DNA of 4,207 bases, taken from a virus. Taxonomy: Duplodnaviria; Heunggongvirae; Uroviricota; Caudoviricetes. Positions 1 through 4,207 of this stretch are shown here, piece by piece. Where the stretch lies: IMG/VR virus record IMGVR_UViG_2534681674_000014, positions 1 to 4,207 of that record, one strand, 5' to 3'. The position numbers and the translations under genes were made by a program. The notes below the pieces were generated by a model. It was not told where the DNA came from, searched no databases, and saw only the letters and a program-made list of their open reading frames with translations. Each line of letters starts with the position of its first letter. Position 1 is the first letter of the stretch.

Positions 1-97
1 AAACTGAAAGAGGGCTGGCAGCCGTTTGGTAGTCCGGTGGCCATAACCCCTTATACCCTGATGCAGGCGATTACAGCAGAAGGTGATGTGATGGTCA

Positions 98-319
98 GTG
101 GTGCAACTGAGCCGGATTGGGTACTACGTCATCGTACTGGCCGGGCAGTCCAATGCCATGGCTTACGGTGAAGGGCTTCCGCTGCCGGATTCATACGATG
201 CTCCGGATCCGCGCATTAAACAGCTGGCGCGCCGCAGTACGGTGACGCCGGCGGGGCTGCCTGCAGATATAACGATATTATTCCGGCCGACCACTGCCTG
301 CATGATGTGCAGGATATGA
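98..319 (+). CDS. Esterase N-terminal fragment carrying the GQSN catalytic-serine motif (out of frame with the rest of the gene)
   Basis: ORF-track frame-2 ORF (GTG start); translation contains VIVLAGQSNAMAYGEGLP, the block I motif of SASA/SGNH esterases. Confidence 0.5.
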   Translation: MVQLSRIGYYVIVLAGQSNAMAYGEGLPLPDSYDAPDPRIKQLARRSTVTPAGLPADITILFRPTTACMMCRI

Positions 320-1782
320 GTACGCTGAATCATCCGAAGGCAGACCTGAGCAAAGGGCAGTACGGCTGTGTCGGCCAGGGCTTACATATTGCCAAAAAAC
401 TGCTTCCGTATATCCCGAATAACGCGGGGATCCTGCTGGTACCATGCTGTCGTGGTGGTTCGGCATTCACCCAGGGCGCGGAGGGGACATTCAGTGCGGA
501 CGCGGGGGCCAGCCAGGATTCGGCACGCTGGGGTGTGGGTAAACCGTTATATCAGGACCTGATTGCGCGCACCAAAGCTGCATTACAGAAGAACCCGAAA
601 AATGTGTTGCTGGCGGTGTGCTGGATGCAGGGAGAGTTTGACATGAGCGCCGCCACCCACGCACAGCAACCTGCGCTGTTTACAGCCATGCTGACACAGT
701 TTCGTGTTGACCTCTCCGTGTTTAACGCGCAGTGCCATGGTGGCAGTGCTGCAGATGTGCCGTGGATTTGTGGTGACACGACGTATTACTGGAAAAATAC
801 ATACGCTACCCAGTACGACACCGTGTACGGCGGGTATAAAAACAGGGAGAGTGAGGGCGTTTATTTTGTGCCCTTCATGACAGACGGTAACGGCGTCAAT
901 ACCGCCACTAACGCGCCGGCAGAAGATCCGGATATTCCGGCATCAGGATATTACGGTGCGGCATCGAGAACGAATGGAAACCAGGTATCATCAAACCGCC
1001 CGACACATTTCAGTTCATGGGCGCGCAGGAGCATTATTCCGGATCGTCTGGCAACCGCTATTCTGAACGCAGCCGGGCGCACCTCAGCCTTCATCAGTGG
1101 TAAGGCACCGGAAATCAAACCCTCGCCCGGCGGCAACACGCCATCGGGTCCGTCTGCAGATACGTCCGTTCGCACAATCTCCCTGCTGCCGGCAGCCGGA
1201 GAGGCTGCTGCGCAGGGCTGGAGCATTAAGGATGGCGGAATTCAGTTGTCAGATGGTGTATTTAAGATCACCAAGCAGAGCAATAAAACCTGGTCCCTGA
1301 CGCATCCGGTGGATGACGCAATTACCCTGCTGACACAGGGCGGCAGACTGACCTGTAAGTTCCGCCTGTCAGGCGCACTGACCAACAATCAGTTCGGGCT
1401 GGGGATTTATCTGTATACGGATGCTCCCGTTCCTGATGGTGTGGCGATGACGGGTACCGGTAATCCGTTCCTGATGTCGTACTTCACTCAGACCACTGAC
1501 GGCAGAGTGAATCTGATGCATCACAGGAAAGCCGGAAACACGAAGCTGGGGGAGTTCGGCGATTACGGTAACGACTGGCAGACGCTGGAGCTGGTGTTCA
1601 CCGCCGGCAGTGCCACGGTTACTCCGAAACTGAATGGAGTGGCTGGCCCGGCATTCCAGGTTATAAAAGACAGTCTGACACTGGGACTGAATGCGCTGAC
1701 GCTGACGGATGTTACAAAAAATGCAGCGTATGGCGTTGAGATAGAAAGTCTGGTGCTGGAGATAAATGCACCGGCAGCATAA
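307..1782 (+). CDS. SASA-domain sialate O-acetylesterase, C-terminal 491 codons (NanS-p-like); true translation start uncertain because of the upstream frame breaks
   Basis: 1476-nt ORF; CWMQGEFD block (SASA block III-like); long Gly/Thr/Ser-rich C-terminal domain; sits immediately upstream of the holin, as in Stx-type lambdoid phages (from memory). Confidence 0.7.
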   Translation: MQDMSTLNHPKADLSKGQYGCVGQGLHIAKKLLPYIPNNAGILLVPCCRGGSAFTQGAEGTFSADAGASQDSARWGVGKPLYQDLIARTKAALQKNPKNVLLAVCWMQGEFDMSAATHAQQPALFTAMLTQFRVDLSVFNAQCHGGSAADVPWICGDTTYYWKNTYATQYDTVYGGYKNRESEGVYFVPFMTDGNGVNTATNAPAEDPDIPASGYYGAASRTNGNQVSSNRPTHFSSWARRSIIPDRLATAILNAAGRTSAFISGKAPEIKPSPGGNTPSGPSADTSVRTISLLPAAGEAAAQGWSIKDGGIQLSDGVFKITKQSNKTWSLTHPVDDAITLLTQGGRLTCKFRLSGALTNNQFGLGIYLYTDAPVPDGVAMTGTGNPFLMSYFTQTTDGRVNLMHHRKAGNTKLGEFGDYGNDWQTLELVFTAGSATVTPKLNGVAGPAFQVIKDSLTLGLNALTLTDVTKNAAYGVEIESLVLEINAPAA

Positions 1783-1790
1783 TAAAAAAG

Positions 1791-1823
1791 AGCCAGCGAC
1801 TGACCTGAAAGAAGACGCTGGCT
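1791..1823 (-). terminator. Hairpin (8-bp stem AGCCAGCG/CGCTGGCT, 17-nt loop) with a T-run on the minus-strand side; candidate minus-strand intrinsic terminator or 3' stabiliser of the esterase mRNA
   Basis: Stem arms at 1791-1798 and 1816-1823 are exact reverse complements; plus-strand AAAAAAG at 1784-1790 gives CUUUUUU after the hairpin on the minus strand. Confidence 0.3.
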
Positions 1824-1937
1824 AAAAGGCCTTATATGTTTGTAGAGACTTATTTTTCACAGACAGCAATGATGCCTGTCAATATATTATCAATATGCGG
1901 ATTGTTTCAGTTACAGATGCTTTATTAAGGAAAAAAC

Positions 1938-1972
1938 AGCCAGCACTGACTTTCGGTGGAGAGGTGCTGGCT
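1938..1972 (-). terminator. Second related hairpin (9-bp stem AGCCAGCAC/GTGCTGGCT, 17-nt loop), minus-strand T-run
   Basis: Arms at 1938-1946 and 1964-1972 are exact reverse complements; plus-strand AAAAAAC at 1931-1937 gives GUUUUUU on the minus strand; left arm plus start of loop (AGCCAGC.ACTGAC) is shared with the hairpin at 1791-1823. Confidence 0.3.
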
Positions 1973-2042
1973 CAGAAGGATAGTTGGATTTCACATGATA
2001 CTTATGCCTGGCGGTATATTTTCTGACAGACAGTGACGGGTG

Positions 2043-2069
2043 TTGTCAAGATATTGTGTCATTTATAAC
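2043..2069 (+). promoter_or_regulatory. Candidate sigma70-like promoter (TTGTCA - 15 bp - TATAAC)
   Basis: Hexamers at 2043-2048 and 2064-2069; spacing is suboptimal (15 bp), so this is weak. Confidence 0.2.
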
Positions 2070-2147
2070 CTGAATCAGGGGGTGGCCGGAATGTTATCTG
2101 GCATTTTTAGCAGAGCCTGAATGCCATAATCACGGCTCCCGGAGTTG

Positions 2148-2184
2148 GCCGTCAGTGGGTGACACTGGCGGCTTTTTTGTTTTT
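2148..2184 (+). terminator. Rho-independent terminator about 50 bp upstream of the holin start
   Basis: 10-bp stem GCCGTCAGTG (2148-2157) / CACTGGCGGC (2163-2172) with one G-U pair, 5-nt loop, followed by TTTTTTGTTTTT (2173-2184). Confidence 0.65.
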
Positions 2185-2228
2185 CTTTACTTGCATTTTC
2201 TGTCGGCGGTGACGGAGACATACATCAG

Positions 2229-2435
2229 ATGGAAAAAATCACAACAGGTGTGTCATACACCACGTCAGCGGTGGGGACGGGATACTGGTTACTGCAGCTG
2301 CTGGACAAAGTCTCTCCGTCCCAGTGGGTGGCAATAGGTGTGCTGGGAAGTCTGCTGTTTGGCCTGCTGACGTATCTGACTAACCTGTATTTCAAAATCA
2401 GAGAGGACCGTCGTAAGGTGGCGCGGGGAGAGTAG
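2229..2435 (+). CDS. S: Class II holin (phage 21 S21 / pinholin-like), 68 aa
   Basis: ATG at 2229 with GGAGA 12 nt upstream; two hydrophobic segments ([10 protein letters not shown] and [18 protein letters not shown]) and a charged C-terminus [13 protein letters not shown]; closely resembles the S21-type holin as I remember it; sits upstream of a SAR endolysin. Confidence 0.85.
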
Positions 2436-2690
2436 TCGATGAATAAACAATACGAACTGGTTGTAAAATGAATATTTCTAACTGAAAAAACGTTCCATGA
2501 GGTAAGAAAAGGTCACAGGCAATCAATAACAGGACGTGATGAAAGACCCTTGCATTTGTGCGCTTTCTCTTTAGATAGCAGCAGATACTGAAAATCTGAG
2601 TTGTCGGGGAGTCAGGGATACAGCTGTGCAAGAGTTGGTCATTGTGATTCCATTGAAATCCTGTATGCCATGAAGGGCAGGATTTTATGG

Positions 2691-3005
2691 CTACCTGAGC
2701 TTTGGTGATAGTAAGTTGAAAATTCGCATTTTTTGCTGACATGCGTAACGAGAATCCCATAAGCAGGGAGGACTTAATTCTTCATTAACCCATGCGTTGA
2801 TATTATGTTTCAGCCGTTGAAGCATCAGCGGTGTTAATGTTGTGGTAATAATATCCAGCGTTTTATGTGAGATCTTACCGTAAGGGTCTGCAAGAATGCT
2901 GCTTGTTGCTTCGTTATTATCTGCCATCAGAAGAAGTAACTCTGATTTAACGTTTTCTGTCATTAGTTGTAAAAATCTTCTGCGCAAACTTTCTTTACTG
3001 TTCAT
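2691..3005 (-). CDS. Hypothetical protein, 104 aa, antisense to the lysis genes, inside an AT-rich insert; no recognisable domain
   Basis: 104-codon open frame in roughly 32-40% GC DNA (hand-counted 60-nt blocks), where stop codons are frequent, so an open frame this long is unlikely by chance. Against it: no clear Shine-Dalgarno before the ATG at 3005 or before internal Met codons. Confidence 0.4.
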   Translation of the reverse strand: MNSKESLRRRFLQLMTENVKSELLLLMADNNEATSSILADPYGKISHKTLDIITTTLTPLMLQRLKHNINAWVNEELSPPCLWDSRYACQQKMRIFNLLSPKLR

Positions 3006-3077
3006 TTATATGGCTTCATTTGTTGTAATCTGCTGCGTCTCAAGGGATATGTTTATGAGAGCGACCATGAGTGTTGG

Positions 3078-3083
3078 ATTATA
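3078..3083 (-). promoter_or_regulatory. Perfect -10 hexamer TATAAT on the minus strand, about 75 bp upstream of the antisense ORF start; no good -35
   Basis: Plus-strand ATTATA at 3078-3083 is TATAAT on the minus strand; best -35 candidates (CTAATC/TCTAAT) are poor. Confidence 0.2.
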
Positions 3084-3122
3084 TACCTAACATATCAAGG
3101 GATTAGAAATCGATAAATCCCC

Positions 3123-3656
3123 ATGAACGAAAAAATAAAATACGGCCTGTCGGCTGCCGTTCTGGCGCTGATTGGTGCAGGTGCTTCTGCGCCTGAAATC
3201 CTCGACCAGTTTCTGGATGAAAAGGAAGGTAACCACACCACGGCATACCGTGATGGTGCGGGGATCTGGACCATCTGCCGTGGTGCCATTCTGGTGGATG
3301 GTAAGCCTGTTATTCCTGGCATGAAGCTGTCAAAGGAAAAATGCGACCGGGTTAATGCCATCGAACGTGACAAGGCGCTGGCATGGGTGGAGAAAAACAT
3401 CCGGGTGCCGCTGACCGAACCCCAGAAAGCGGGGATCGCGTCATTCTGTCCGTACAACATTGGCCCCGGTAAGTGCTTCCCGTCGACGTTTTATAAACGA
3501 ATTAATGCAGGCGATCGAAAAGGTGCCTGTGAGGCGATTCGCTGGTGGATTAAGGACGGTGGCAGAGACTGCCGTATCCGTTCAAATAATTGCTACGGTC
3601 AGGTCTCACGGCGTGACCAGGAGAGCGCGCTGGCGTGCTGGGACATCGACAGATAG
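3123..3656 (+). CDS. R: SAR-type endolysin, GH24 (T4-lysozyme family) muramidase, 177 aa
   Basis: N-terminal weakly hydrophobic Gly/Ala-rich signal-anchor-release segment (YGLSAAVLALIGAGASAP) followed by an E-x8-D-x5-T catalytic pattern (EGNHTTAYRDGAGIWT); paired with a pinholin-type S upstream. Confidence 0.85.
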   Translation: MNEKIKYGLSAAVLALIGAGASAPEILDQFLDEKEGNHTTAYRDGAGIWTICRGAILVDGKPVIPGMKLSKEKCDRVNAIERDKALAWVEKNIRVPLTEPQKAGIASFCPYNIGPGKCFPSTFYKRINAGDRKGACEAIRWWIKDGGRDCRIRSNNCYGQVSRRDQESALACWDIDR

Positions 3657-3744
3657 CAGAATATTTTCCTGAAAAATGACGTTGGCCAACGCGGGTGGAT
3701 AACACGAAATCCTGAAAACTGGTAAAACCTAAGTGAATAAAAGT

Positions 3745-3786
3745 AAAAACCCCGTTTGTTGGCAGCAAGCGGGGTTTTGTGTTTTC
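3745..3786. terminator. Intrinsic terminator downstream of the endolysin, possibly bidirectional (A-run before, T-run after)
   Basis: 9-bp stem CCCCGTTTG (3750-3758) / CAAGCGGGG (3766-3774) with one G-U pair, 7-nt loop TTGGCAG, then TTTTGTGTTTTC; AAAAA at 3745-3749 precedes the stem. Confidence 0.6.
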
Positions 3787-3876
3787 TGACCTTGAGTAAG
3801 GCAAGGGAGAAATTATGGGTAGGGAGGTACTTTCCCTGTGAGGAAGTATAAAAGATTCTTTCTGAGGTTGTCCATT

Positions 3877-3947
3877 ATGAAAGGCATTGAAGTGGAGACG
3901 CCAGCCAGTCTGGATTTAACAAGAGCGGCAGCTTTTGCCATTCGTAT
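3877..3947 (+). pseudogene. 5' fragment (first 24 codons, MKGIEVETPASLDLTRAAAFAIRI) of an unidentified gene interrupted by the IS element
   Basis: ATG at 3877 with GAGG 9 nt upstream; the frame runs straight into the IS terminal repeat at 3948 and stops inside it (TGA at 3985-3987). Confidence 0.35.
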
Positions 3948-3989
3948 TGAACCGCCCCGGGTTTCCTGGAGAGTATTTTATCTGTGAAC
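3948..3989. repeat. Terminal inverted repeat and end region of the IS element
   Basis: TGAACCGCCCCGGGTTTCCTGGAGAGTATTTTATCTGTGAACTC lies directly 3' of the transposase stop codon (plus 3990-3992). Confidence 0.55.
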
Positions 3990-4207
3990 TCAGGCTGCCA
4001 GATCATTATTTCCGATGGAAGCATAATAAGCTTTTTCTGCTTCTGCCGGAGGAATATGGCCCAGCCTTTCCAGCAATCGTCGATTGTTATACCAGTCCAC
4101 CCACGTTAGTGTGGCCAGTTCCACTTCTGTCCGGTTTTTCCAGCTATTACGGTGTATTACCTCCGCTTTGTAAAGACCATTGATGCTCTCAGCCATCGCG
4201 TTGTCAT
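3990..4207 (-). CDS. IS3-family transposase OrfB, C-terminal ~72 codons (partial; N-terminus is off the right edge)
   Basis: Translation ...MAESINGLYKAEVIHRNSWKNRTEVELATLTWVDWYNNRRLLERLGHIPPAEAEKAYY... shows the AES(F/I)NG..K.E motif and C-terminal region typical of DDE integrase-core transposases of the IS3 family; the frame is open to the window edge. Confidence 0.75.
   Translation of the reverse strand, partial: DNAMAESINGLYKAEVIHRNSWKNRTEVELATLTWVDWYNNRRLLERLGHIPPAEAEKAYYASIGNNDLAA

Follow-up and report, generated by a model that had tools for sequence, protein, structure and literature searches.

The S-R gap of a lambdoid prophage

We analyzed a 4,207-nucleotide stretch of viral DNA (IMG/VR record IMGVR_UViG_2534681674_000014, positions 1 to 4,207; here referred to as the window), which is the late region of a lambdoid, Shiga toxin (Stx) phage-like Escherichia coli prophage. 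Our subject is the gap between its holin gene (S) and its endolysin gene (R), and above all an antisense open reading frame (ORF) of 104 codons in that gap, which we call gene Y; the decayed gene lying beside it is called gene X. The original prediction, made from the sequence letters of the window, placed the S stop at 2435 and the R start at 3123, with a gap of 687 bp (2436 to 3122) between them and the antisense ORF at 2691 to 3005 on the minus strand. All of these coordinates are correct (Table 1). The AT richness that it described is also real: the GC content of the gap is 39.0%, compared to 53.1% for S, 54.3% for R, and 55.4% for the upstream esterase gene. The gap consists of three parts, namely the 255-bp wreck of a pseudogene (the X remnant, 40.4% GC), the intact antisense gene (38.4% GC), and a 117-bp spacer between that gene and R (37.6% GC).

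Table 1. Features of the S-R gap and its surroundings, in window coordinates
Feature	Position	Strand	Description
Sialate O-acetylesterase, nanS-p type	end at 1782		SASA + DUF6645
Holin S, phage 21 class II pinholin type	2229..2435	+	68 codons; PF04971, E value 1.3e-32; left gap boundary
X stub	2439..2471	+	10 codons (MNKQYELVVK), then TGA
X 3' remnant	~2512..2643	+	C-terminal core (PHROG 1085 type); in-frame stops
Gene Y	2691..3005	-	Intact, 104 codons; PHROG 1853; pI 9.3; predicted five helices
Mini-ORF MKPYK*	3019..3002	-	Five codons; TGA overlaps the Y ATG (ATGA)
Y-R spacer	3006..3122	-	117 bp; presumed Y control region
TATAAT box	3083..3078	-	~75 nt upstream of the Y ATG
Endolysin R, phage lysozyme	3123..3656	+	177 codons; PF00959, E value 7.6e-24; right gap boundary
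IS3-family transposase fragment, 3' end	3990..4196	-	rve_3 + rve_2

In relatives of this prophage (phage 86, 12E129, and several contigs), X is a late-strand gene of 189 to 268 codons that starts a few bases past the S stop. Its C-terminal core of ~110 residues (PHROG 1085) is conserved, and its N terminus is variable, being either a DUF1327/YdfR domain or a coiled coil. In the window, the nucleotides directly after S (ATG AAT AAA CAA TAC GAA CTG GTT GTA AAA TGA) encode a stub that is 100% identical to residues 1 to 10 of the 287-residue DUF1327 proteins P0093 and P0104 and whose nucleotides match the 5' ends of the genes of phage 86, Stx2_95, and YYZ-2008 at 87% identity. The middle of the gene is deleted. 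What follows is a remnant of the C-terminal core, found by tblastn with X proteins at 36 to 41% identity (E values of 1e-6 to 3e-4), whose translation, NQ*QDVMKDPCICALSL*IAADTENLSCRGVRDTAVQELVI, aligns to NKKQGLMKRIGRCMGYLQVAAEIEALACGADRDTAVREALL. Of the DUF1327 domain (PF07041, ~90 residues), which in intact relatives scores ~1e-45, the gap contains only codons 1 to 10 and the TGA, and it has no Pfam match. The remnant is 54 to 59% identical at the nucleotide level to intact X genes, compared to 76 to 92% among the intact genes themselves, which makes the pseudogene an old one. X in the window is thus a long-dead pseudogene of a YdfR/DUF1327-headed family. The possibility raised earlier that the segment is a decayed remnant of a known gene therefore holds for its left 255 bp and fails for Y, which is intact. 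Of 5426 complete E. coli genomes, 787 contain the X core itself, with up to five copies in each, and the core has no significant match in Pfam, NCBIfam, or PADLOC; the predicted structure of X is too poor for use (predicted local distance difference test [pLDDT] score of 48.8).

Two further ORFs touch the gap. Although the original prediction stated that no plus-strand ORF of 60 codons or more lies between S and R, there is one of 64 codons at 2896 to 3090. We considered it as a gene and rejected it because it is absent in the related copy L007; L004 has a 70-codon ORF in a similar place, and we take the window ORF to be a shadow ORF. On the minus strand, a 120-codon ORF at 2398 to 2760 overlaps the left end of the gap, and we take this to be a shadow ORF as well, judging by its position alone. 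An inverted repeat at 2655 to 2684 (AAATCCTG ... CAGGATTT, then TTAT on the plus strand) lies exactly at the junction of the Y stop and the X remnant; its folding energy is not significant on either strand (z scores of -1.7 for plus and -0.9 for minus).

To place the gap among related phages, S-R junctions were surveyed in a spread sample of 60 out of 357 matching phage records. S and R were adjacent (span of ~744 bp) in ~38 of the 60, including 933W, and were separated by a 114-codon YdfR/DUF1327 gene (span of 1139 bp) in ~11; a few records had larger inserts of ~1 kb. The direct adjacency known from lambda and phage 21, against which the gap was originally set, is therefore shared by many relatives but is one of several states of the junction. 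The junction emerges here as a hotspot for cargo, and its states number four or more: it may be empty or hold YdfR alone, both X and Y, or Y alone. Stx2a phage Stx2_499 (L011) has different cargo in the slot, a second convergent pair unrelated to Y. It comprises a 162-codon late-strand gene, with an X-type coiled-coil head and a different tail, and an unannotated 233-codon antisense ORF (L011 positions 745 to 1446, minus strand) that overlaps the 3' end of the 162-codon gene.

The description of the insert as a single acquired moron stands insofar as this is an AT-rich accessory insertion where many relatives have S and R adjacent, but it is not one gene, as its left 255 bp are the remains of X. 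In our reading, the gap is what is left of an accessory module of two genes, which occupies a polymorphic site within or beside the lysis cassette in lambdoid prophages of the Stx type. The 687-bp gap is found with 100% identity in many complete E. coli genomes, and at least 80% of it is present in 626 of the 5426, with nearly all copies at least 99% identical. The carriers are O157:H7, O111, O103, and O121 strains together with some isolates that are not Shiga toxin-producing E. coli. The window allele was found in 627 of the 5426 complete genomes and, at megablast sensitivity, in none of 50,697 sequenced phage genomes.

Gene Y encodes a conserved protein of a narrow family

The Y protein matches PHROG 1853 with an E value of 3.5e-47, its residues 1 to 102 aligning to profile positions 57 to 158, and orf6 of the Stx2 phage 86 belongs to the same family (E value of 8.4e-50). 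The homologues in phage 86 (orf6) and in Stx2a phage 12E129 are 53% identical to Y. The caveat that the ORF might be a conserved hypothetical already present in related prophages was well placed, given the PHROG family, an EDL933 entry, and a RefSeq entry. The exact 104-residue sequence is the EDL933 "unknown protein encoded within prophage CP-933O," annotated since the first EDL933 release, and it occurs under the EDL933 name on at least 995 contigs. The RefSeq protein, WP_000138558.1, is a 90-codon call that starts at Met15 and is thus 14 codons short. Because the homologues, which are 104 to 107 residues long, conserve the first 14 residues, the ATG at 3005 is favored over the RefSeq start. 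Both the length of the ORF and its N terminus are kept down to 21% identity.

Members of the Y family are present in 674 of the 5426 complete E. coli genomes (~12%), and 627 of these have the window allele, in which X is dead. The GC content of Y is 38 to 47% across all alleles. In an exhaustive HMMER search of 1.84 billion cluster representatives, there were only 20 matches, mostly proteins of ~105 residues or fragments thereof, and so no annotated relative at a greater distance. Y thus belongs to a narrow orphan family of enterobacterial lambdoid prophages.

No motif had been recognized in the 104-residue product from its sequence, and database searches likewise returned no relative from Pfam (to an E value of 10), NCBIfam, or PADLOC. 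With PADLOC-DB 2.0 and an E value of up to 1, no family was matched by Y, by two Y homologues, or by two X proteins. Foldseek searches of PDB and BFVD with the Y model gave nothing at an E value of 0.001 or below, and a sequence profile search of PDB gave nothing credible, the best match being a designed protein (E value of 0.039). In the literature searched, WP_000138558 is not mentioned, and publications on genes between holin and endolysin contain nothing on the Y family, with data for YdfR only.

The Y protein has a grand average of hydropathy of -0.33, and its sequence shows no long hydrophobic stretch. An AlphaFold2 model with a mean pLDDT of 84.7 and a predicted template modeling score of 0.74 contains the five helices listed in Table 1. 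Y is accordingly predicted to be a small, soluble, basic helical bundle with no catalytic or DNA-binding signature. We also considered an antiholin or membrane-bound lysis regulator and rejected it, since there is no transmembrane segment and no holin family match and the predicted five-helix protein is soluble.

Gene Y is under purifying selection

The length of the Y ORF is weak evidence for a gene, because an ORF of at least 104 codons arises in 81 of 2000 dinucleotide shuffles of the gap (4%). Homology and selection, in contrast, establish that the ORF is real. Between alleles, the pairwise ratio of nonsynonymous to synonymous divergence (dN/dS) of Y is 0.13 to 0.30; for the window and L007, dS is 0.67 and dN is 0.117. 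To follow selection within the lineage that has lost X, we compared the window with each of three haplotypes that share its dead-X structure (L061, L062, and L064). These differ from the window at 15 to 20 positions in the 255-bp X remnant (5.9 to 7.8% of sites) and at 9 to 13 positions in the 117-bp Y-R spacer (7.7 to 11%), compared to 7 to 11 positions in the 315 bp of Y. Within Y, the proportion of synonymous sites that differ (pS) is 0.076 to 0.106 and that of nonsynonymous sites (pN) is 0.008 to 0.016, giving a pN/pS ratio of ~0.1 to 0.15. In L064, the synonymous and nonsynonymous sites of Y differ from each other (Fisher P = 0.002), as do its nonsynonymous sites and the flanking sites (P = 1e-4), while synonymous and flanking sites do not (P = 0.64).

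Because pN/pS is low among haplotypes that share the dead X, purifying selection on Y continued after X was lost, and Y thus works on its own. Conservation of the ORF and purifying selection on it, two properties on which the original prediction had made its reading depend, are both evident, in the homologues and in the divergence within and between lineages. These data indicate that Y is a real, selectively maintained protein gene.

X and Y are linked but separable

The order S, X, convergent Y, and R is found in phage 86, in Stx2a phage 12E129, and on several contigs, with the X and Y stops lying between -33 and +19 nt apart. The tail-to-tail pair persists in members whose Y proteins are 21 to 41% identical. 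These distant pairs lie upstream of the holin gene instead of between S and R, and they accompany other holin families. In L018, for instance, the order is Q, a HicAB pair, X, convergent Y, S, and R; in L015 and L016, the pair is found with a lambda-type holin, and L014 carries it as well. The linkage of X and Y is therefore ancient, and the two genes form a module that is conserved, can come apart, and travels together with lysis genes.

Separation has occurred in both directions. Y is found without X in three allele groups. In the window allele and in L066, which carries a stop-terminated DUF1327 stub and a C-terminal X remnant of its own, an intact Y lies beside visible remains of X; in L072, L073, and L076, 99 bp separate S from Y and no X remnant is visible. 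Y is intact in L072 and frameshifted near the C terminus in L076. In L004, X is frameshifted and the neighboring Y is intact. The converse, X in the absence of Y, is also common; in Stx2_95, for example, R follows 36 bp after X. Among the complete E. coli genomes, most X copies are without Y and most Y copies are without X. One IMG genome contains both a Y-only prophage and an X-plus-Y prophage (L020 and L095).

Candidate control signals upstream of Y

The spacer between Y and R contains two conserved arrangements on the Y strand. At the position of the TATAAT box, L004, L005, L007, and L065 have TATAAT or TACAAT despite diverged surroundings, and L066 has GCGTAAT. The mini-ORF whose stop overlaps the Y start is kept, with different codons, in L004, L007, L066, and L065, an arrangement suggestive of translational coupling or of control by a leader. 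In phage 86-type alleles, a conserved GC hairpin is found instead, ~55 to 70 nt upstream of Y; in the copies of phage 86, 12E129, and L081, a T-run comes after it. No Rfam family was matched, and local folds are not significant; a search of the whole window at an E value of up to 1 gave a single subthreshold rimP match, outside the gap.

A terminator-like hairpin is also located 5' of S (window positions 2147 to 2173, plus strand; CGTCAGTG-loop-CACTGGCG, then a T-run). The same stem is found, on the Y strand, in the hairpin upstream of Y in L002 (positions 3896 to 3917) and in L003, L015, L018, L078, and L081. These latter copies belong to phage 86-type and distant alleles, and the hairpins have an invariant stem around a loop that varies. 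The element may be either a terminator module in shared use or a palindrome to which a protein binds.

Flanking genes

In the esterase gene, a 1-nt deletion at ~250 to 255 (ACGCC-GGCGGGG, compared to ACGCCGGGTGGGG in two intact homologues) splits the coding sequence into two frames (ORFs 98 to 319 and 307 to 1782), which makes it a probable pseudogene in this strain. S is labeled "class II holin family protein" by PGAP in an identical locus. At 2217 to 2231, the window reads ATA CAT CAG ATG where phage 86, 12E129, and L004 read ATG TAC CAG ATG (MYQM...); the upstream start of the dual-start motif is thus missing from the window holin, and only the 68-codon form is possible. In phage 21, the longer form of the holin is the antiholin.

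The N terminus of R is hydrophobic, and we take it, by its resemblance to phage 21 R, to be of the signal-anchor-release (SAR) type. Its ATG has no recognizable Shine-Dalgarno sequence before it (...GATAAATCCCCATG; window positions 3090 to 3125). A block 5' of R, TAACATATC(A/C)AGGGATT...GATAAATCC, is kept in most alleles located between S and R, and it persists even where Y is down to ~50% identity. After R, there is a strong terminator-like hairpin (3746 to 3778, plus strand) and then the 3' end of the IS3-family transposase gene on the minus strand; no Rz/Rz1 spanin genes are present in window positions 3657 to 4207. The prophage is probably defective. In strain PV15-279, R itself is truncated by a different IS3-family insertion.

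What gene Y may do

We lean toward the view that Y is an autonomous, moron-like prophage gene, expressed in the lysogen, whose cytoplasmic product binds another protein to the benefit of the lysogen or the prophage and is not a component of lysis; on present evidence this is somewhat better than an even bet. Y would have a weak promoter of its own in the Y-R spacer; since its transcription would not depend on the Q-antiterminated late operon, it would take place mainly in the lysogen, and the protein may then act in the cytoplasm as a binder. We infer the time of expression, the promoter, the binding action, and the benefit to the lysogen. In favor of this view, we count the orientation of Y against the late operon, its distinct base composition, the selection on it that outlasted X, its integrity in a prophage that is visibly defective (R is truncated, and the terminase and portal genes are frameshifted), and the absence of the window allele from all isolated phage genomes despite the ~12% prevalence in E. 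coli. Several points weigh on the other side. The case for expression is drawn from sequence signals, and these are incomplete: the TATAAT box has no convincing -35 element, a consensus scan found neither a sigma-70 promoter nor a terminator for Y, and its ATG is not preceded by a good Shine-Dalgarno sequence. The convergent transcription of its own that the original prediction ascribed to the insert is thus not borne out beyond the conserved TATAAT-like box. In addition, the within-lineage selection test is built on three divergent haplotypes that are related to each other. Finally, most window-allele copies have an identity of at least 99%, so their high prevalence reflects recent spread.

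A different account, unlikely but deserving attention, makes Y the partner of X, an inhibitor, immunity factor, or regulator that would be produced in the lysogen and would neutralize the X made late. Orphan Y genes would then be kept to act in trans on the X of coresident or superinfecting lambdoid phages, a form of interphage interference. The tight tail-to-tail linkage, which outlasts great divergence and relocation, fits this account, as do the number of genomes and copies in which the X core is found and the IMG genome with both Y-only and X-plus-Y prophages. X may also be worth controlling, since YdfR, the protein corresponding to its head, has been reported to bind RNase E's catalytic domain and possibly RNA (PMC13232886). 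The frequent occurrence of each gene alone argues against partnership, however, and Stx2_95, with R directly after X, implies that X needs no Y. Comparison by hhalign shows no relation between Y and X, and the X model is unusable. A bolder version, which we hold to be a little less probable again, is that Y is a lysogen-made binder that disables X/YdfR-type late proteins of rival or coresident lambdoid phages, or another phage or host factor on which lytic growth depends.

The position of Y, always antisense and immediately upstream of R or S, would also suit a unit that works at the RNA level, with convergent transcription of Y dampening leaky read-through into the holin and SAR endolysin genes in the lysogen and the protein being secondary. 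There is no room for a terminator between convergent X and Y, and no minus-strand terminator was found after Y, so Y transcripts should run antisense into X and S. This account is nevertheless improbable, because the constraint on Y is strong and specific to the protein, with synonymous sites drifting at the neutral rate of the flanks, and because an RNA-only function would not conserve the length and N terminus of the product to 21% identity. We give equally little credence to Y as a protein of the lytic cycle, such as a lysis-timing or late accessory factor, that is expressed at induction and not in the lysogen. In every context seen, Y does lie inside the lysis cassette or directly upstream of it, and functional Stx2 phages (phage 86 and 12E129) carry homologues. 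Against such a role, Y opposes the strongly antiterminated late transcript, lacks the membrane segment of an antiholin, and is retained in a defective prophage, and its window allele is absent from all sequenced phage genomes. As for a nonfunctional relic that has so far escaped disruption, the shuffles show that chance can supply an ORF of this length, and some Y copies are in fact truncated or frameshifted (P0001, P0013, P0016, L074, and L076). The selection tests led us to reject this reading as highly improbable: dN/dS is low across alleles, purifying selection is seen inside the X-dead lineage, and Y is intact in independent Y-only alleles whose neighboring X decayed.

Whichever account holds, Y is carried by prophages of the major Shiga toxin-producing lineages (O157:H7, O111, O103, and O121) and by about one in eight complete E. 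coli genomes, and its gene model is corrected here from 90 to 104 codons. As a selectively maintained gene that outlived its partner in a conserved lysis-linked module, it is a cheap target for work on prophage interference, lysis control, and host fitness. If Y does disable X, it would be a previously unrecognized single-gene factor of interprophage interference or defense, hidden in the lysis cassette of ~12% of sequenced E. coli and of most O157:H7 strains. If it is merely another small moron of unclear benefit, its significance is modest.

Comparison with known systems

Y matches no known antiphage defense family in PADLOC-DB 2.0. X and Y resemble toxin-antitoxin or immunity pairs in being two small, tightly linked genes whose linkage is kept across divergent relatives; they differ in being convergent and not cotranscribed, and each is often found alone. 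Neither Y nor the X core has a toxin or antitoxin domain in Pfam, NCBIfam, or PADLOC, and we rejected a toxin-antitoxin reading because the genes occur apart. The YdfR/DUF1327 genes (Qin essQ-ydfR-rrrQ and YYZ-2008 gp44) occupy the same slot between S and R, and the 10 codons that come directly after S in the window are the beginning of a gene of this kind. All that is left of it there is a stub ending in a stop codon, and Y, on the opposite strand, is not related to it.

In position and composition, Y behaves like the phage morons described by Hendrix and Juhala, of which bor and lom of lambda and gp15 of HK97 are examples. As with these, the extra DNA separates genes that relatives have side by side, and it stands apart from its surroundings in base composition (39.0% GC for the gap, compared to 53 to 55% for the flanks). 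Y also runs against the late operon, as does bor, which in phage 86 lies antisense downstream of Rz. Y departs from the type in that its own promoter is putative and a consensus scan found no terminator for it, in that its product is predicted to be cytoplasmic and not an envelope protein, and in that it arrived as part of a convergent two-gene module and not singly. As a member, over residues 1 to 102, of PHROG 1853, a phage family of unknown function, Y is an already-annotated conserved hypothetical of a familiar kind.
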